Virus genome (UHGV): UHGV-0208947
Length of the DNA stretch: 43,224 bases
Strand: one strand, 5' to 3'
From: a virus
Shown here: positions 7,346-13,899 of the stretch, piece after piece
Layout: each line of letters opens with the position of its first letter
How positions within the stretch are numbered: the stretch's first letter is position 1
Made by a program: the position numbers and the translations under genes
The notes under the pieces: generated by a model
Databases searched by the model: none
The model's input: the letters and a program-made list of their open reading frames with translations, nothing else
Told to the model about the DNA's origin: nothing

Positions 7346-7507
7346 TTAGCCTTCGTGAGCCATCTGGTCGTGCGAAGCGCAACGTTTGGAGCAATACTCT
7401 TTTTCTTTGCGCGCCAGCTGTGAGCCGTTGCGATAGAGAAGGGTGCTCTTGATTACTTCCTCCGTTTTAACCGGCTTGCCGCAATATCCGCATTTCTTGT
7501 CTAACAT
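7346..7507 (-). CDS. Small zinc-ribbon protein (53 aa), hypothetical
   Basis: ATG at 7507-7505 preceded by GGAGGA; MLDKKCGYCGKPVKTEEV...YCSKRCASHDQMAHEG contains CxxC...CxxxC; below the 60-aa track cutoff. Confidence 0.45.
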   Translation of the reverse strand: MLDKKCGYCGKPVKTEEVIKSTLLYRNGSQLARKEKEYCSKRCASHDQMAHEG

Positions 7508-7518
7508 GACATCCTCCG

Positions 7519-7869
7519 CTAGTGGCTGAGTCCATGCCCCAGACCGTTCAGATAAACTTCAACCAGCAAATCCTTGGTGTAAGTCATTTCTACGCCGCGA
7601 TGCAGATACAAACGTCCGCGAGCGTTAGCTGATGCCGTCCAGGTTGAGTCTTTGTGTTTGACGAGCATCCCCGGCTGAACTGCGCCGCGGTTTACTGTCT
7701 GTGTACCGTAGTGCTGATGAACCATGATGTTCTCCAGTTTTTCTGAGTGAACTTCGCTGGTGGTGCCGCGGCGCTGATCTTCACGGTTGAGCGTTTTAAC
7801 TCTGCAATTCACCACCGCGAAGCTCACTCTGTGCTTTGCCCTTGTCGCCAGGCTGGCGGAACGTTTCAA
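7519..7869 (-). CDS. Hypothetical early protein in the position of an N-like gene (function not supportable)
   Basis: 116-aa ORF just downstream of the leftward operator; track start is TTG, true start unclear (internal M at MVHQHYG). Confidence 0.35.
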   Translation of the reverse strand: MKRSASLATRAKHRVSFAVVNCRVKTLNREDQRRGTTSEVHSEKLENIMVHQHYGTQTVNRGAVQPGMLVKHKDSTWTASANARGRLYLHRGVEMTYTKDLLVEVYLNGLGHGLSH

Positions 7870-7979
7870 ACCTACTGCGCGTTAATCTCACCACCTCATT
7901 CCGGTCTTCGTATGCCCCGGACGGCTACTTCGTGGGCTCCATGCCTGGGTGGTTCGTGGTGCGTCTTGGTGATTGCATA

Positions 7980-7996
7980 TTAAGCCTGAGACTTAA
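7980..7996. promoter_or_regulatory. Candidate left operator site (17-bp near-palindrome TTAAGCCTGAGACTTAA)
   Basis: Exact reverse complement of the 17-mer at 10194-10210 next to the repressor/cro divergent region. Confidence 0.5.
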
Positions 7997-8027
7997 ATCA
8001 TGTCAAGCTCCAGGCGAAATGTGATTG

Positions 8028-8043
8028 TAAGTTTCAGGCTTAA
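8028..8043. promoter_or_regulatory. Second candidate left operator half-copy (TAAGTTTCAGGCTTAA)
   Basis: 16/17 match to the operator motif, 32 bp from the first copy. Confidence 0.35.
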
Positions 8044-8146
8044 TCGTGATGTTCACCGAATTGCAGGCAAAAAAAATCCCGACGCTAAGGTCGAGATCGG
8101 GGACTTCGTGGCTGGGTGTTGGCGGCTGAGATGGTGGGTGAGGGTG

Positions 8147-8177
8147 TAAAAAACCCGACGCTGTGGCCGGGTTTTTT
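8147..8177. terminator. Candidate rho-independent terminator ending the repressor operon (leftward), possibly bidirectional
   Basis: A-run, GC hairpin CCCGAC/GGCCGGG, T-run; on the minus strand the stem CCCGGC/GTCGGG is followed by T7. Confidence 0.45.
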
Positions 8178-8301
8178 CATTACTGCTGGTTAAATCCTTT
8201 CGGCGAGTGCTGCTGTTCTTTATTACCAAATTTTTGATTTACAATGATTTTATAAGCGTTATTGAGAGCTTGCTTTATAGACATTAATATCTCCTTATGT
8301 G

Positions 8302-9606
8302 TTATTGACGATTAAAGTAGTTAGAGTTTAGCTCTTTAGGGAAGTAGTGTTTACGATTTACCCAAACAAATCCATCAACTTTTGATATCACAGCGACATC
8401 AACAGGCCCACCGACAGTTTCATAATCATGTGATACTTTTCTTTTGAATGCAGTGATGTTCACTAATGATTCGGCCATATACGCAAGATCTGCCTTCCCA
8501 AGTGATTGCAACATCGATATCATTTTATTTGTATGGTTATTAACAATATAGCTTTCAAGTTTAGTATCGTGATCTTGTAAAAGTACGTTTTTGAGTTCCT
8601 CAATTTCACTGGAGAAGTGATTGGCTAGTACTCCATTGTTCATTGCAGGGAAAATATTGCTAGAAACATAATGATTAAGCCGATCAAAAACTTCCTCTGT
8701 AAGAGTTCTGTTAAAATTAATGATGTTAGGGTTGCACCCATCAATGAAAGTTACTACTTCATCTTCTTGAGCAAATGGTATAACAAACCCCATATTGGTT
8801 ACCTTATTATGGGATTTATCATCAATATTATGGATCATCAATTTGTTTTTAAAAATGCCGTAGATATGAAGAGTGCAAATGGAAGGGTAATATTCTTCCT
8901 CTCCATAACCTGTTATAACAATCCCTGAATATGTACGACTAGCATGGACTTTGAAAATTAAACAAGTGGAATATAATATGACTTTTTCCATAAGCTCTTG
9001 CTGTATATTTTCACAGTTATCAAGAACAATAATTGATGAAATGTATGGCGATATTAAATCTTGTATATATGCTAAAGCATCATTAAACTCTTCTGTATCA
9101 AACCCTTCGAAAAAGAGATTATTCCTTAAGATTCCTATCTCTAAATCAAAGGCTTGCTTAACTATGTTTTGAAAAATAACATTGTCGAGTTCAACGGCGG
9201 GGTTCATTGTTAAATAGTTTACTACATTATTATCATTAATGTATCTCATCAAACCTTTGAGGTTATCAACAACAAGGTTTATAACGCAAGCCTCTCTCAT
9301 TTCATTTGTTATAAGGTCTGAGTTACCATTGATGAATTTTACAAAGTCATTAACATATTCTTTAATGGTAGGGAAACTAGTTTTCCCCAATTGTTTTCTA
9401 TAGGATTTAATTATAAGTTCCCACGGTGCGCCACCCAGTGTCGCATTATTATAAATCATGATCCCCACGGGATGGTGTTTAGATAGTTCGAATAGTTTTT
9501 CCGCACTATTATTTATTTTTACTAATCTATTATGCTCTGTGGTGACTGCAGAGTCAGCAGCAAGGGCGATTCCAGTATTATTTATTACAACAATCTCAGC
9601 TGTCAT
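8302..9606 (-). CDS. AT-rich accessory protein with HslV/proteasome-beta-like (Ntn hydrolase, threonine peptidase) signatures; candidate defence or abortive-infection gene in the rex position
   Basis: Minus-strand ORF co-oriented with and directly downstream of the repressor gene. The internal ATG at 9606-9604 gives MTAEIVVINNTGIALAADSAVTTEHNRLVKIN..., closely paralleling HslV [35 protein letters not shown] (Thr after Met, Asp about 17, Lys about 30). The C-terminus ...YETVGGPVDVAVISKVDGFVWV resembles the GSGG / D-x-x-S-G-G region of the same fold. About 300 residues of Asn/Ile/Lys-rich sequence lie between. The track ORF extends to an ATG at 9705 (467 aa); 434 aa from 9606. Confidence 0.6.
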   Translation of the reverse strand: MTAEIVVINNTGIALAADSAVTTEHNRLVKINNSAEKLFELSKHHPVGIMIYNNATLGGAPWELIIKSYRKQLGKTSFPTIKEYVNDFVKFINGNSDLITNEMREACVINLVVDNLKGLMRYINDNNVVNYLTMNPAVELDNVIFQNIVKQAFDLEIGILRNNLFFEGFDTEEFNDALAYIQDLISPYISSIIVLDNCENIQQELMEKVILYSTCLIFKVHASRTYSGIVITGYGEEEYYPSICTLHIYGIFKNKLMIHNIDDKSHNKVTNMGFVIPFAQEDEVVTFIDGCNPNIINFNRTLTEEVFDRLNHYVSSNIFPAMNNGVLANHFSSEIEELKNVLLQDHDTKLESYIVNNHTNKMISMLQSLGKADLAYMAESLVNITAFKRKVSHDYETVGGPVDVAVISKVDGFVWVNRKHYFPKELNSNYFNRQ

Positions 9607-9747
9607 TGCAAAACATCCCGTGTAGTAGTGATAAATATTAATTAAATTGATAGTTTTTTTCAATCTAACATAAATGGCGGAATCACCCCCCAGTAAAGAC
9701 ATCATTGTCTCATGGGAACTAAAAATTCAGGACAAACCTAAAGCGAT

Positions 9748-10134
9748 TCAGTCCCCCTGCGAGCGAATCCGCCCCTTCATGTACTTCTCATACAGCTCAT
9801 CCAGTTCCTTAAGACGTATCGAAAAGATGCGGAGCATGTTCTGTTGCTCTTCTTCTGGCAGCTGGCGGTAGAGCTCAAGCAGGCGCTGTTCGTCCGGCTT
9901 AAGTCCGTCCTTCTCGCCGACATCCTCACCGAGTAACCAAGGCACAGACACGCCAGCTGCGTCAGCGACAGCGAGAGCTGATTTCTTGCTGATCACGCCT
10001 TTTTTAAACCAGCCGTTCACAGACTGCGGGGTTACCCCAGCAACCCTGGCCATATCGGATTTGGTCATACCGCGCCCGTTCAGCTCTGAAAGGCGTTCGA
10101 CAAGTATCGGATTAAGTACGGTTTTCTCTTTCAT
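9748..10134 (-). CDS. Prophage repressor, DicA/CI-like HTH (XRE family) protein
   Basis: 128 aa; HTH MTKSDMARVAGVTPQSVNGWFKKG; C-terminal LLELYRQLPEEEQQNML resembles DicA; divergent from the cro-like gene with operator repeats between. Confidence 0.8.
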   Translation of the reverse strand: MKEKTVLNPILVERLSELNGRGMTKSDMARVAGVTPQSVNGWFKKGVISKKSALAVADAAGVSVPWLLGEDVGEKDGLKPDEQRLLELYRQLPEEEQQNMLRIFSIRLKELDELYEKYMKGRIRSQGD

Positions 10135-10193
10135 GGTTAGAAGAATAAGCCTTTTTCTTAAACTTGAAAATTCGCCTCAGGCTTGACAATAAA

Positions 10194-10210
10194 TTAAGTC
10201 TCAGGCTTAA
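10194..10210. promoter_or_regulatory. Candidate right operator (TTAAGTCTCAGGCTTAA) in the repressor/cro divergent promoter region, with -35-like TTGACA at 10183-10188
   Basis: 17-bp near-palindrome identical (as reverse complement) to 7980-7996; related half-sites CTCAGGCTT at 10176-10184 and AAGCCT at 10147-10152. Confidence 0.5.
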
Positions 10211-10238
10211 TTTGATTGTATTCAAATCGGAGACAACG

Positions 10239-10457
10239 ATGAACGGGTTAACGAAAGCCATTAAGTCCGCTGGCACTGCAACAAATCTCGCAACCATGCT
10301 GGGCATCAAGCCGATGTCGGTCAGCCGCTGGAAAAACCGGTACCAGGGCGTGGTGCCTGCTGATCGGGTCCTTCAAATCTACGCGGCTACCGGCGTAACT
10401 CCACACGAGCTGCGCCCTGATCTCTATCCAAACCCAAGTGACGGTTTACCAAAGTAA
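10239..10457 (+). CDS. Cro/YdaS-like small HTH regulator
   Basis: ATG at 10239 after GGAGA; MNGLTKAIKSAGTATNLATMLGIKPMSVSRWKNR... HTH; divergent from the repressor. Confidence 0.7.
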   Translation: MNGLTKAIKSAGTATNLATMLGIKPMSVSRWKNRYQGVVPADRVLQIYAATGVTPHELRPDLYPNPSDGLPK

Positions 10458-10468
10458 GGAATGTAACT

Positions 10469-11008
10469 ATGCAATCACTTACGTATCAACAGAGTAACGG
10501 GTTCATTTCAGCAGCGCTGATAAATCGCGCTCAACCAAAACCGGGCGTCAGTTGTGGTGCCCTCCGTGATGCTGTTCGCGCCTGGTCAGCAGTAGCCGGG
10601 CAGGACGTTGTAACGGCCCTGATCGTTGAAGAGTGGCACCGGATAGGTGGCGAAGGTATCGACTTTCCGGCAGATCACAGCCGTGCCCGGCAGAAGCTGT
10701 TCCGCTTCCTGGATAACCATTTCAACAGCGAACGGTACCGCGAGAACGTCCGCCAGCTGACGCCGGCAATCCTCGCTGTCCTGCCGATTGAATACCGCAA
10801 TCGTCTGCTACCAGAAGACAACGTAATGGCTCGTCTGGCAAGGCTGGAGAAGGAAACCAGCGAAGCGAAGATTGCTGTCGCAATGGATGCGCCACGTCAT
10901 CAGAAGCTGAAAGAGTTGAGCGAGGGGATCGTGGAGATGTATCGCGTTGACCCTGGGTTAACCGGTCCGTTGATGGAAATGGTGCAGATTATGCTGGGGG
11001 CTATATGA
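10469..11008 (+). CDS. CII/YdaT-like early regulatory protein (family uncertain)
   Basis: 179-aa ORF immediately after the cro-like gene, before the replication genes. Confidence 0.45.
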   Translation: MQSLTYQQSNGFISAALINRAQPKPGVSCGALRDAVRAWSAVAGQDVVTALIVEEWHRIGGEGIDFPADHSRARQKLFRFLDNHFNSERYRENVRQLTPAILAVLPIEYRNRLLPEDNVMARLARLEKETSEAKIAVAMDAPRHQKLKELSEGIVEMYRVDPGLTGPLMEMVQIMLGAI

Positions 11009-11092: not shown

Positions 11093-12004
11093 ATGTCAAA
11101 CACCGCTGAAATAATCAATTTCCCAAATAAAACCGAACAACCGGGAGGTCGTATGGCCGACCTGTCGAACGGGTATACCAAGGTCGCTAACGAGATCCAA
11201 CAGCTTAAGCCTCGCCTGAGACTGTCAGGCCGGGAATGGCAATGTTTTGAGGCGGTGATCTGGCTTACCTACGGCTGGAACAAGAAACAGGACCGCGTGA
11301 CAAATACGGTTATTGCCGAGCTTACGGGCCTGAGCGATACGCATGTATCGGACGCGCTTAAGTCTCTCGCAGAACGCAAAATCATCTTTTCACAGAAGCA
11401 GGGCATGATGAAAATCGTCGGTGTAAACACTGACCTTTCAGCATGGATTTTAGACAAACCGGAAACGGGAAGAAAATTCCCGAAAACGGGAAAATCCTTC
11501 CCGAAATCAGGAATAACCTTCCCGAAAACGGTAGACACCCAATACAAGAACAAGAACAGTATTAAAAGATCTTCGTCCGAGAATTCTGACGAATCCTCTG
11601 ACGCACGTCTGAAGAAATTTTTATCAACTCATCCTGAAGCTGCGGTCTACACACCATCCGGTGCGAAGTGGGGCTCTGCTGAAGACCTCGAGACAGCTAA
11701 GTGGATTTCCTCCAGGGTGAAGCTGATTAACCCAACCTGCAAAGCCCCGGACATGACCTCCTGGTCTAACACTGTTCGCCTGATGCGCCAGATAGACAAC
11801 CGGTCGCACCAGGACATCTGCGCGCTGTATGACTGGGCTAGCAAACACCACTTCTGGCAGACCAACATCCTGAGTCCCGAAAGCCTGCGTAAGCAGTGGG
11901 ACAAGCTGACAATGCAGCGTAACGCCGGAGGTGAGCAGCGCGGCGCTGTCAAGCCAGATCTGGACTTCAACAACACTGACTGGGCCTATGGGGTGATCCG
12001 ATGA
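11093..12004 (+). CDS. Replication initiator, lambda O-like
   Basis: MSNTAEIINFPNK... parallels lambda O MTNTAKILNF...; ...LTYGWNKKQDRVT... parallels O ...KTYGWNKPMDRIT...; iterons inside the gene; ATGA overlap with the P-like gene. Confidence 0.8.
   Translation: MSNTAEIINFPNKTEQPGGRMADLSNGYTKVANEIQQLKPRLRLSGREWQCFEAVIWLTYGWNKKQDRVTNTVIAELTGLSDTHVSDALKSLAERKIIFSQKQGMMKIVGVNTDLSAWILDKPETGRKFPKTGKSFPKSGITFPKTVDTQYKNKNSIKRSSSENSDESSDARLKKFLSTHPEAAVYTPSGAKWGSAEDLETAKWISSRVKLINPTCKAPDMTSWSNTVRLMRQIDNRSHQDICALYDWASKHHFWQTNILSPESLRKQWDKLTMQRNAGGEQRGAVKPDLDFNNTDWAYGVIR
11457..11531. repeat. Iteron array (candidate replication origin) inside the O-like gene
   Basis: TTCCCGAAAACGGG at 11477, TTCCCGAAATCAGG at 11498, TTCCCGAAAACGG at 11519 (21-bp periodicity) plus a degenerate copy at 11457; AT-richer stretch follows. 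Confidence 0.55.
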
Positions 12005-13627: not shown

Positions 13628-13647
13628 TACTGTATAAAAACACAGTA
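13628..13647. promoter_or_regulatory. LexA (SOS) box upstream of the DinI-like gene
   Basis: TACTGTATAAAAACACAGTA: CTGT-N8-ACAG with AT-rich centre, matching the E. coli LexA consensus; ends 18 nt before the dinI-like ATG. Confidence 0.6.
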
Positions 13648-13665
13648 AATGCAATGGGGGCCATT

Positions 13666-13899
13666 ATGAAAGTTGAATTAACCATTGATCGCATGAAAGA
13701 ACTTCCTAAAGGCGCAGTACCAGCACTGGAGAAAGAACTGCTTAAGCGCCTGAATGATCACTATGACAATTGCAGGCTCACAATCCGCCGTGCCGGGGCC
13801 GATGGGTTAAGTGTTTTTGGTGGTGACAAGGACGATAAAAAGAAAATTGAATCAATCCTCCAGGATACCTGGGAAAGCGCTGACGACTGGTTTTATTAG
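13666..13899 (+). CDS. dinI: DinI-family protein (DNA-damage-inducible protein I homologue)
   Basis: MKVELTIDRMKELPKGAVPALEKELLKRL...DKKKIESILQDTWESADDWFY parallels E. coli DinI including the C-terminal ...ILQETWESADDWF. Confidence 0.8.
   Translation: MKVELTIDRMKELPKGAVPALEKELLKRLNDHYDNCRLTIRRAGADGLSVFGGDKDDKKKIESILQDTWESADDWFY

Follow-up and report, generated by a model that had tools for sequence, protein, structure and literature searches.

Anatomy of the immunity region

The stretch of DNA analysed here, referred to as the window, comprises 43,224 nucleotides of the virus genome UHGV-0208947 and is a Rac-like lambdoid prophage of Escherichia coli. Its immunity region contains a leftward repressor gene, a divergent cro-like gene and, between the repressor and a group of repeated sites further to the left, a gene of 434 amino acids (aa), hereafter the cargo (Table 1). 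This gene arrangement had been put forward in an earlier sequence-only reading of the window and is confirmed here.

Two exact copies of a 17-bp sequence bracket the repressor and the cargo. In particular, TTAAGTCTCAGGCTTAA is found on the plus strand at 10194-10210 and its exact reverse complement occupies 7980-7996, so that the identity of the two copies, as claimed by the sequence-only reading, is confirmed. The TTGACA hexamer that the same reading had placed beside the right copy was located 5 bp upstream of it, at 10183-10188. The copies had also been described as palindromes, a term that applies only in part, the 17-mer being a near-palindrome (TTAAGTCT, a central C, AGGCTTAA) with seven of its eight symmetric pairs matching around an odd central base. 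A third copy, GTAAGTTTCAGGCTTAA, previously taken for a 16/17 match at 8028-8043, is actually a 15/17 match over 8027-8043 (15/16 over 8028-8043). A scan of the 43 kb window, the check that had been proposed for this motif, returned no further site at 15/17 or better. When up to three mismatches are allowed, 0.09 hits are expected by chance; five strand-hits were found at three places, and none of 100 shuffles gave as many.

The window was then scored against the symmetric degenerate consensus TTAAGYCTNAGRCTTAA. Only three sites reach at least 15/17 (shuffle mean 0.07), namely the left operator sites OL1 and OL3 and the right operator site OR1 of Table 1. At 13/17 or better, eight sites are found against 4.3 expected, including those at 10170-10186 and 10145-10161 as well as three scattered, chance-level sites. 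The half-sites that had been reported to cluster at 10144-10184 are indeed present, but they belong to two further 17-bp sites, OR2 and OR3. The middle left site, OL2, was absent from the earlier description, as were the TTGACA and TAATAT hexamers that belong to the left exact copy.

Each cluster is, in other words, an array of three phased sites. Site centres lie at 10202, 10178 and 10153 on the right and at 7988, 8011 and 8035 on the left, with centre-to-centre spacings of 24 and 25 bp in OR and of 23 and 24 bp in OL, and both exact copies are the promoter-proximal member of their own array. The predicted promoter PR is directed towards the cro analogue, of the YdaS type, and PL towards kil-recE; OL1 begins 4 bp downstream of the PL TTGACA. 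The two clusters are mirror images, both facing outward. Moreover, OL2 pairs with OR2 and its adjacent TTGACA as an 18-nt inverted repeat with 83% complementarity.

Table 1. Positions of the predicted operators, promoters and terminators and of the genes of the immunity region (window coordinates; promoters are predictions)
Feature	Position	Strand	Description
OR1	10194..10210	+	TTAAGTCTCAGGCTTAA; spans PR spacer and -10
OR2	10170..10186	+	ATTCGCCTCAGGCTTGA, 13/17; 4 bp overlap with PR -35, abuts proposed PRM -35
OR3	10145..10161	+	ATAAGCCTTTTTCTTAA, 13/17; overlaps proposed PRM -10
OL1	7980..7996	-	exact OR1 copy; spans PL spacer and -10
OL2	8003..8019	-	TTTCGCCTGGAGCTTGA (minus strand), 12/17; 4 bp overlap with PL -35
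OL3	8027..8043	-	TTAAGCCTGAAACTTAC (minus strand), 15/17
PR	10183..10211	+	TTGACA (10183-10188), 17-nt spacer, CTTAAT (10206-10211); from sequence
PL	7977..8006	-	TTGACA (8006..8001), 18-nt spacer, TAATAT (7982..7977); 10/12 consensus positions
Proposed PRM	10142..10170	-	TTTTCA (10170..10165), 17-nt spacer, TATTCT (10147..10142)
Promoter-like site before cargo	9635..9663	-	TTGAAA-17-TAATAT; consensus match only
t1	8148..8178	both	bidirectional hairpin with U/T runs; free energy (dG) -16.2 kcal/mol, z -4.0; first terminator past cargo
t2	8067..8098	-	intrinsic terminator: 9-bp stem (8075-8098) and U8
Repressor	9748..10134	-	128 aa; HTH_3 (residues 21-67) and short helical C-terminal domain; DicA-like
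cro analogue	10239..10457	+	72 aa; YdaS family, PF15943 E 1.3e-14; GGAG before ATG 10239
YdaT-family protein	10469..11008	+	PF06254 E 2.5e-23; CII-like position
Cargo	8302..9606	-	434 aa; proteasome-beta-like N-terminal nucleophile (Ntn) hydrolase homologue with two helical insertions; 32-36% G+C
kil	7519..7725	-	68 aa; first PL-operon gene; phrog_294 E 8.9e-36; PGAP coordinates

The clusters also form an inverted repeat, with 26-nt arms that are 88% complementary, around a 2.2-kb module of a kind exchanged among lambdoid phages, and inverted repeats of 17-26 bp in such a position could be regarded as recombination scars or as the terminal inverted repeats of a mobile 'immunity cassette'. This origin is very hard to reconcile with the anatomy of the sites and we give it hardly any credence, as every site is internally two-fold symmetric, the phased triplets overlap promoter hexamers, the boundaries at which cargo is exchanged differ from the positions of the repeats, and the module contains no transposase or recombinase.

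Association and co-variation of the sites with the repressor

If the sites are operators, they are expected to accompany a particular repressor. The exact 17-mer was scanned in 2.9 million IMG/VR viral contigs, and 37 stretches were returned. All those with enough flank encode a repressor 82-100% identical to that of the window together with a cro homologue, and the motif lies either in the repressor-cro spacer or 0.6-2.5 kb beyond the repressor; three exceptional stretches are truncated OL fragments beside kil. A scan of one genome per species gave 24 loci, 23 of which contain Enterobacterales repressor homologues (61-97% identity) and one of which is a distant partial match (Spirochaetaceae). 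Among the repressor homologues the C-terminal 55-60 residues are near-constant, and the helix-turn-helix (HTH) domain sorts into groups, each of which has its own spacer 17-mer, that is, GTAAACCACAGATTTAC, GTAAAGCACCAATTTAC, TTAAACATAATGTTTAG or TAAAGCATAGGTTTGC, so that at least four specificity groups can be distinguished. In 17 of the 24 loci the best spacer palindrome recurs downstream of the repressor, at a distance of 0.5-2.8 kb and with no more than three mismatches; in no locus (0/24) does it recur in a control region of equal length on the cro side. In other species, OL and OR change together with the HTH domain of the repressor.

The pattern of conservation around the sites follows the same outline. 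Specifically, in 19 distinct OL regions OL3, OL2 with the -35 hexamer and OL1 with the -10 hexamer are conserved, and the OL3-OL2 spacer, the spacer between the -35 and OL1 and the region past the -10 vary freely. Among 16 distinct OR variants, differences occur at the central base and at positions 6 and 12, TTAAG/CTTAA being invariant. Since the association, co-variation and footprint tests agree, chance or a non-regulatory repeat is a very unlikely explanation of the sites. A separate observation concerns OR3, which reads ATAAGCCTTTTTCTTAA in the window and ...TTTTGCTTAA in 14 of the 16 distinct OR variants; one base of the consensus is lost through this G-to-T change, which may make negative autoregulation weaker.

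The closest comparison is offered by the group-B repressors (loci L040-L044), which are about 86% identical to the repressor of the window, yet are paired with GTAAACCACAGATTTAC-type and not with TTAAGTCTCAGGCTTAA operators. Within residues 1-70, among other changes, the N-terminal arm differs and Ser38, in the putative recognition helix, is replaced by Ala. The two form a natural minimal specificity switch, and 86%-identical repressors with TTAAG- versus GTAAA-type half-sites could be used to study both the choice of DNA by short non-cleavable repressors and the evolution of heteroimmunity.

The repressor itself is a small protein. On Pfam it matches only HTH_3 and, weakly, Phage_CI_repr (residues 21-70), and Peptidase_S24 is absent, which excludes RecA-mediated cleavage and implies induction by another route, for example by an antirepressor. 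Its helical C-terminal domain of ~55 aa carries the signature L-x-P-x-E-x-x-LL-x-L-[FY]-x-x-LPE-x-EQ. Residues 24-125 align with DicA of the Qin prophage (29% identity over 111 aa, BLASTP E 4e-12, hhalign 97.5%), and the NCBIfam DicA model matches over its full length but with 34 bits against a cut-off of 101; as these matches indicate, the protein is a distant member of the DicA family and not an equivalog. With RacR only a 32-aa HTH stretch aligns, the NCBIfam RacR model scoring 17 bits against a cut-off of 200. PaaR2 of CP-933P gives BLASTP E 9e-4 over 43 aa and hhalign 75.6% (E 2.4e-5, residues 49-118), and the C-terminal domains of the two repressors are possibly homologous. Ubiquitin matches obtained in the PDB search were rejected as an artefact, a weak 23-residue match being repeated in polyubiquitin.

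The immunity region of this Rac-like prophage very probably contains two operator arrays of three sites each, arranged as mirror images, in which the 17-mers are the strongest sites (O1). A dimer of the 128-aa DicA-like repressor would bind the near-palindrome TTAAGYCT-N-AGRCTTAA. Occupancy of OR1 and OR2 would switch off PR and with it cro (YdaS), YdaT and the replication genes, and occupancy of OL1 and OL2 would switch off PL and with it kil, ydaE and recE/recT. On OR2, beside the -35 of a weak and probably leaderless PRM, the repressor may activate this promoter, and at high levels it would shut PRM through OR3, which overlaps it. The Cro analogue presumably occupies these sites in the opposite order. 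The PRM transcript would run through a variable cargo slot, here filled by the 434-aa proteasome-like gene, and stop at two conserved terminators before OL. Induction would proceed without self-cleavage of the repressor, by another route such as an antirepressor. The proposal of the sequence-only reading, namely that OL- and OR-like operators bracket the repressor operon, finds support in the mirror arrays and in their association, co-variation and conservation.

Several points weigh against this switch. It builds on directly observed site anatomy, statistics, co-variation, conservation and homologies, and from these we infer binding, order of occupancy, activation, OL-OR looping, co-transcription and route of induction, with looping and antirepressor induction argued by analogy. 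OR2, OR3 and OL2 are each at chance level in the window-wide scan, and their significance depends on position, phasing and conservation. The -10 of PR is weak or ambiguous, its position being uncertain by ~2 bp, and a strict promoter scan called neither PR nor PRM. The promoter-like site at 9663..9635 could uncouple expression of the cargo from PRM. Finally, as repressor and Cro change together, co-variation cannot tell which of the two proteins reads the sites.

This last point leads to a different assignment, in which the Cro/YdaS-like protein or another factor is the main reader of the motifs in vivo, and the 128-aa HTH protein is not the maintenance repressor at both clusters. Cro does diverge between specificity groups (64%, 55% and 74% identity), and the behaviour of YdaS in Rac K-12 was not that of a classical Cro (PMC9638921). 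It is nevertheless the HTH domain of the repressor that swaps with the operator type, its C-terminal domain remaining constant; the homologue DicA represses the PR-equivalent as well as the PL-equivalent (PMC10448788); and the sites overlap PR and PL, two promoters that have to be off in a lysogen, the leftward gene being the one that is active there. We consider this assignment very improbable.

The proposed repressor operon and its variable slot

The proposed PRM lies very close to the gene it would serve. The A of the repressor ATG, at 10134, lies 7 nt past the -10 hexamer, and there is no Shine-Dalgarno sequence in front of it. A -10-like hexamer is found 6-7 nt ahead of the repressor ATG in five specificity groups (TACAAT/TAGAAT at 6 nt in the four other than that of the window). 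Because the -10 ends 7 nt before the ATG and a Shine-Dalgarno sequence is missing, the repressor mRNA is probably leaderless, a mode of translation proven by experiment for paaR2 of CP-933P (PMC8630535).

Past the repressor stop codon, the cargo open reading frame starts after 141 nt on the same strand, and a terminator scan found no terminator-like hairpin between the two genes. In 13 aligned loci with the same operators and different inserts, similarity is lost immediately behind the repressor stop codon and returns just ahead of t1; t1, a C-rich spacer of ~50 nt, t2 and OL3 belong to the backbone in most of these loci. The cargo is on the repressor strand in 26 of the 26 loci examined. The claim that the 434-aa gene stands inside the immunity transcription unit is supported by this anatomy, that is, by the shared strand, the missing terminator and the cassette boundaries, and the order of repressor, cargo and terminators is by analogy the cI-rexAB-timm layout of lambda.

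The operators could be genuine and the cargo nonetheless be an autonomous moron with a promoter of its own, functionally separate from the repressor operon, its position reflecting only a permissive insertion site. The TTGAAA-17-TAATAT match lies inside the AT-rich cassette, ~22 nt upstream of the cargo ATG, the repressor stop codon is followed by a 141-nt gap, and in some prophages homologues of the cargo stand alone between the Q antiterminator and the holin on the opposite strand, where they must therefore have their own promoters. Against such autonomy, no terminator separates repressor and cargo, the two are co-oriented at every locus examined, and the cassette junctions coincide exactly with the repressor stop codon and with the shared terminators. 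We regard an autonomous cargo as rather unlikely, and note that it is compatible with the operon arrangement: lambda rexB is transcribed both by read-through from PRM and from its own promoter.

The terminator pair deserves a brief description. Between t1 and t2 lies a conserved C-rich, G-poor stretch of ~50 nt (ACACCCUCACCCACCAUCUCAGCCGCCAACACCCAGCC...; window 8062-8185, minus strand), and the t1-t2 unit is kept in phages whose cargo differs. Possible roles of the spacer are those of a Rho-utilisation-like element, of a backup or of a small-RNA 3' end.

The slot delimited in this way holds at least 10 different gene sets with 35-43% G+C, between flanks of ~52%, and four of the alternative cargoes match the PADLOC candidates PDC-S42, PDC-M11A, PDC-M63B and PDC-M66A/B. 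The same position is taken by bstA (PMC8585504) and by paaA2-parE2 (PMC8630535). The slot behaves as a defence-gene hotspot. In seven IMG/VR loci (L003, L005, L009, L013, L014, L025 and L027) a 569-bp slot contains a second DicA-like repressor paralogue of 133 aa, whose HTH domain is of another, group-D-like kind and whose C-terminal domain has diverged; this paralogue might give immunity against a heteroimmune phage.

The cargo of the window has a proteasome-type Ntn fold, as indicated by the methods used here, and its match to phrog_5990 spans the full length, starting with the ATG at 9606 (E 3e-178). It has more than 6,000 homologues, typically of 427-434 aa, all unnamed and without Pfam domains. 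In an alignment of 40 sequences (35-80% identity to the query), M1, T2, A3, E4, D18, K30 and K37 are invariant, and a C-terminal VGGP-D-VA-S-K motif is invariant or nearly so. Set against the N-terminal Thr, Asp17 and Lys33 of the threonine peptidases, T2, counted from the 434-aa start, is a candidate N-terminal nucleophile, and the T2/D18 spacing is that of HslV. RefSeq WP_231531568.1 annotates the protein as 467 aa from the ATG at 9705 (8302-9705, minus strand), a start that is probably wrong, since MTAE is invariant as the beginning of the protein across the family, the PHROG match covers the full length from 9606 and one relative has no upstream extension. Sequence searches gave no Pfam, NCBIfam or PDB match, hhalign against E. 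coli HslV was not significant (probability 0.2%), no family of the PADLOC-DB 2.0 hidden Markov models matched at E <= 0.1, and a BFVD fold search returned a single marginal phage 'proteasome beta' match (E 8.5e-4).

The proteins most similar in description are the PMI ('proteasome homologs with multiple insertions') surveyed by Fuchs et al. 2021, of which PMI-4 is recorded in phages (PMC8665760). Like these, the cargo has a proteasome-beta fold and no propeptide, the likeness being drawn from the published description. Its helical insertions (approximately residues 62-218 and 281-392) are at the same two positions that the survey describes for PMI-3 and PMI-4, after H1/H2 and between H3/H4 (PMC8665760). 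A prophage immunity-operon context is not mentioned in the survey as far as it was read (PMC8665760).

All sampled homologues of the cargo occur in phage contexts. One type follows immediately behind an S24-type CI repressor in Klebsiella prophages, and in Enterobacter wuhouensis (L054) one fills the same slot behind a group-D repressor. Homologues at 37-40% identity take up other classic moron positions (L071-L073, L076-L078, L068-L070 and L074), namely the opposite strand between the Q antiterminator and the holin, the tail/ejection-protein end of a prophage and, in Vibrio, the neighbourhood of a filamentous phage with a Zot gene, where the adjoining gene is PLD-like. We tentatively suggest, as a possibility that we hold at less than even confidence, that the family is a stand-alone proteasome-like threonine Ntn hydrolase acting as a lysogen-expressed anti-phage effector, in superinfection exclusion or abortive infection. 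The PADLOC candidates in the slot of sister phages, the homologues in moron slots of unrelated prophages, the foreign base composition and the invariant Met-Thr start give this role circumstantial support; literature searches found no proteasome-like anti-phage system. If true, it would represent a proteolytic or amidohydrolytic defence outside the current catalogues, carried as a cassette in the repressor operon and in other moron slots. A LexA-like CTGT-N8-ACAG within the AT-rich cargo gene (9001-9016) is at chance level.

The value of the locus lies largely here. The slot is precisely bounded, from the repressor stop codon to the tandem terminators, and is a practical place to seek new anti-phage genes. 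Related phages fill it with anti-phage defence candidates, and in the window it holds an uncharacterised homologue of proteasome-like enzymes, the most interesting of the candidates and a stronger lead than the operators themselves.

Known switches and the prophage setting

Taken alone, the operators are textbook architecture and of modest value. Three-site OL/OR arrays have already been described for Qin and CP-933P, and the switch therefore represents a new specificity in a known class. Specifically, the predicted operators, with the consensus TTAAGYCT-N-AGRCTTAA, add a new immunity specificity to those of the DicA-like repressor family.

As in lambda, each cluster has three 17-bp near-palindromic sites at ~24 bp spacing, with O1 over the outward promoter, O2 beside the PRM -35 and O3 over PRM; the clusters lie ~2.2 kb apart and bracket the repressor and accessory gene(s), a terminator precedes OL, and the repressor mRNA is probably leaderless here too. 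Unlike that of lambda, the repressor has only 128 aa, no Peptidase_S24 and no sequence relationship past the HTH; the operators are unrelated in sequence, PL is followed by kil as the first gene and not by an N-like gene, and the cargo is a single proteasome-like gene instead of rexAB.

The DicA/DicC switch of Qin, a cryptic prophage of E. coli K-12, has three operators at the equivalent of PR and as many at that of PL (PMC10448788). The repressor of the window is a true DicA homologue, and both proteins are short, 'unconventional' and without a cleavage site; their identity is, however, only 29%, the Qin operators in the dicA-dicC spacer are of the TTAGT/TTAGC type, and the Cro of the window is YdaS-type and not DicC (weak match, E 0.002). 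Short repressors of this class are not RecA-cleavable. DicA is relieved by the antirepressor Rem, and PaaR2 forms octamers (PMC10448788, PMC8630535).

For PaaR2/YdaS of CP-933P (E. coli O157:H7), OR1-3, OL1-3 and PL have been verified by electrophoretic mobility shift assay, footprinting and reporters (PMC8630535). The window resembles this system in its YdaS- and YdaT-family partners, in OR1-3 and OL1-3 with PL, in a repressor without a peptidase domain, and in accessory cargo directly downstream of the repressor in the operon, there the toxin-antitoxin pair paaA2-parE2 (PMC8630535). It differs in that the N-domains of the repressors are unrelated and the Cro proteins not detectably similar, and in that the operators of CP-933P consist of GTTTAGT-type repeats, both direct and inverted, whose layout is more complex (PMC8630535). 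The YdaT site of CP-933P, TTGATT-N6-AATCAA, was sought and discarded, being not enriched in the window (5 matches versus 2.4 expected) and absent from the immunity region.

The module order of Rac of E. coli K-12 (recE, ydaE, kil, slot, repressor, ydaS, ydaT) is that of the window. RacR has three inverted-repeat operators in the repressor-ydaS spacer (PMC9638921). The differences lie in the repressor, RacR having 158 aa, in the operators, which read (T/A)TAGGC-n3-GCCTA(T/A), and in the slot, which there holds sieB, ydaF and ydaG.

The window region is 100% identical to chromosomal prophages of several E. coli genomes, for example NZ_CP062811, where the prophage adjoins kch/cls and reads int, recT, recE, ydaE, kil, a hypothetical gene, an HTH protein, a transcriptional regulator and a YdaT-domain protein, followed by replication O/P, DinI-like, rusA, Q, lysis and terminase genes. 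Phage mEp237 is 98% identical to the left arm (kil and upstream, window 7400-7958), and no deposited phage carries a match to the immunity region itself. The repressor gene occurs at 99% identity or more in only 12 of 5,426 complete E. coli genomes.

Before kil, the predicted PL leader of ~245 nt (7726-7972, minus strand) folds into a long imperfect hairpin (dG -79 kcal/mol, z -2.2). This leader contains no convincing open reading frame and no Rfam match, and it has no convincing homology to the KilS small RNA, which holds this position in Rac K-12; an Rfam scan of the whole window gave no family at threshold. To the right, an isolated 13/17 operator-like site, TTAAGTCTCTCGCAGAA, lies within the replication O-like gene at 11358-11374 and is at chance level.

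A near-consensus LexA box, TACTGTATAAAAACACAGTA, stands directly ahead of a DinI-family gene of 81 aa (13654-13899, plus strand; Pfam E 4e-26), box and gene together taking up 13628-13899. The antirepressor Tum of coliphage 186 is DinI-like. Given a repressor without a cleavage domain and a window in which no homologue of the Qin antirepressor Rem was found, the SOS-controlled DinI-family protein behind this box is, speculatively, a candidate inducer or antirepressor.

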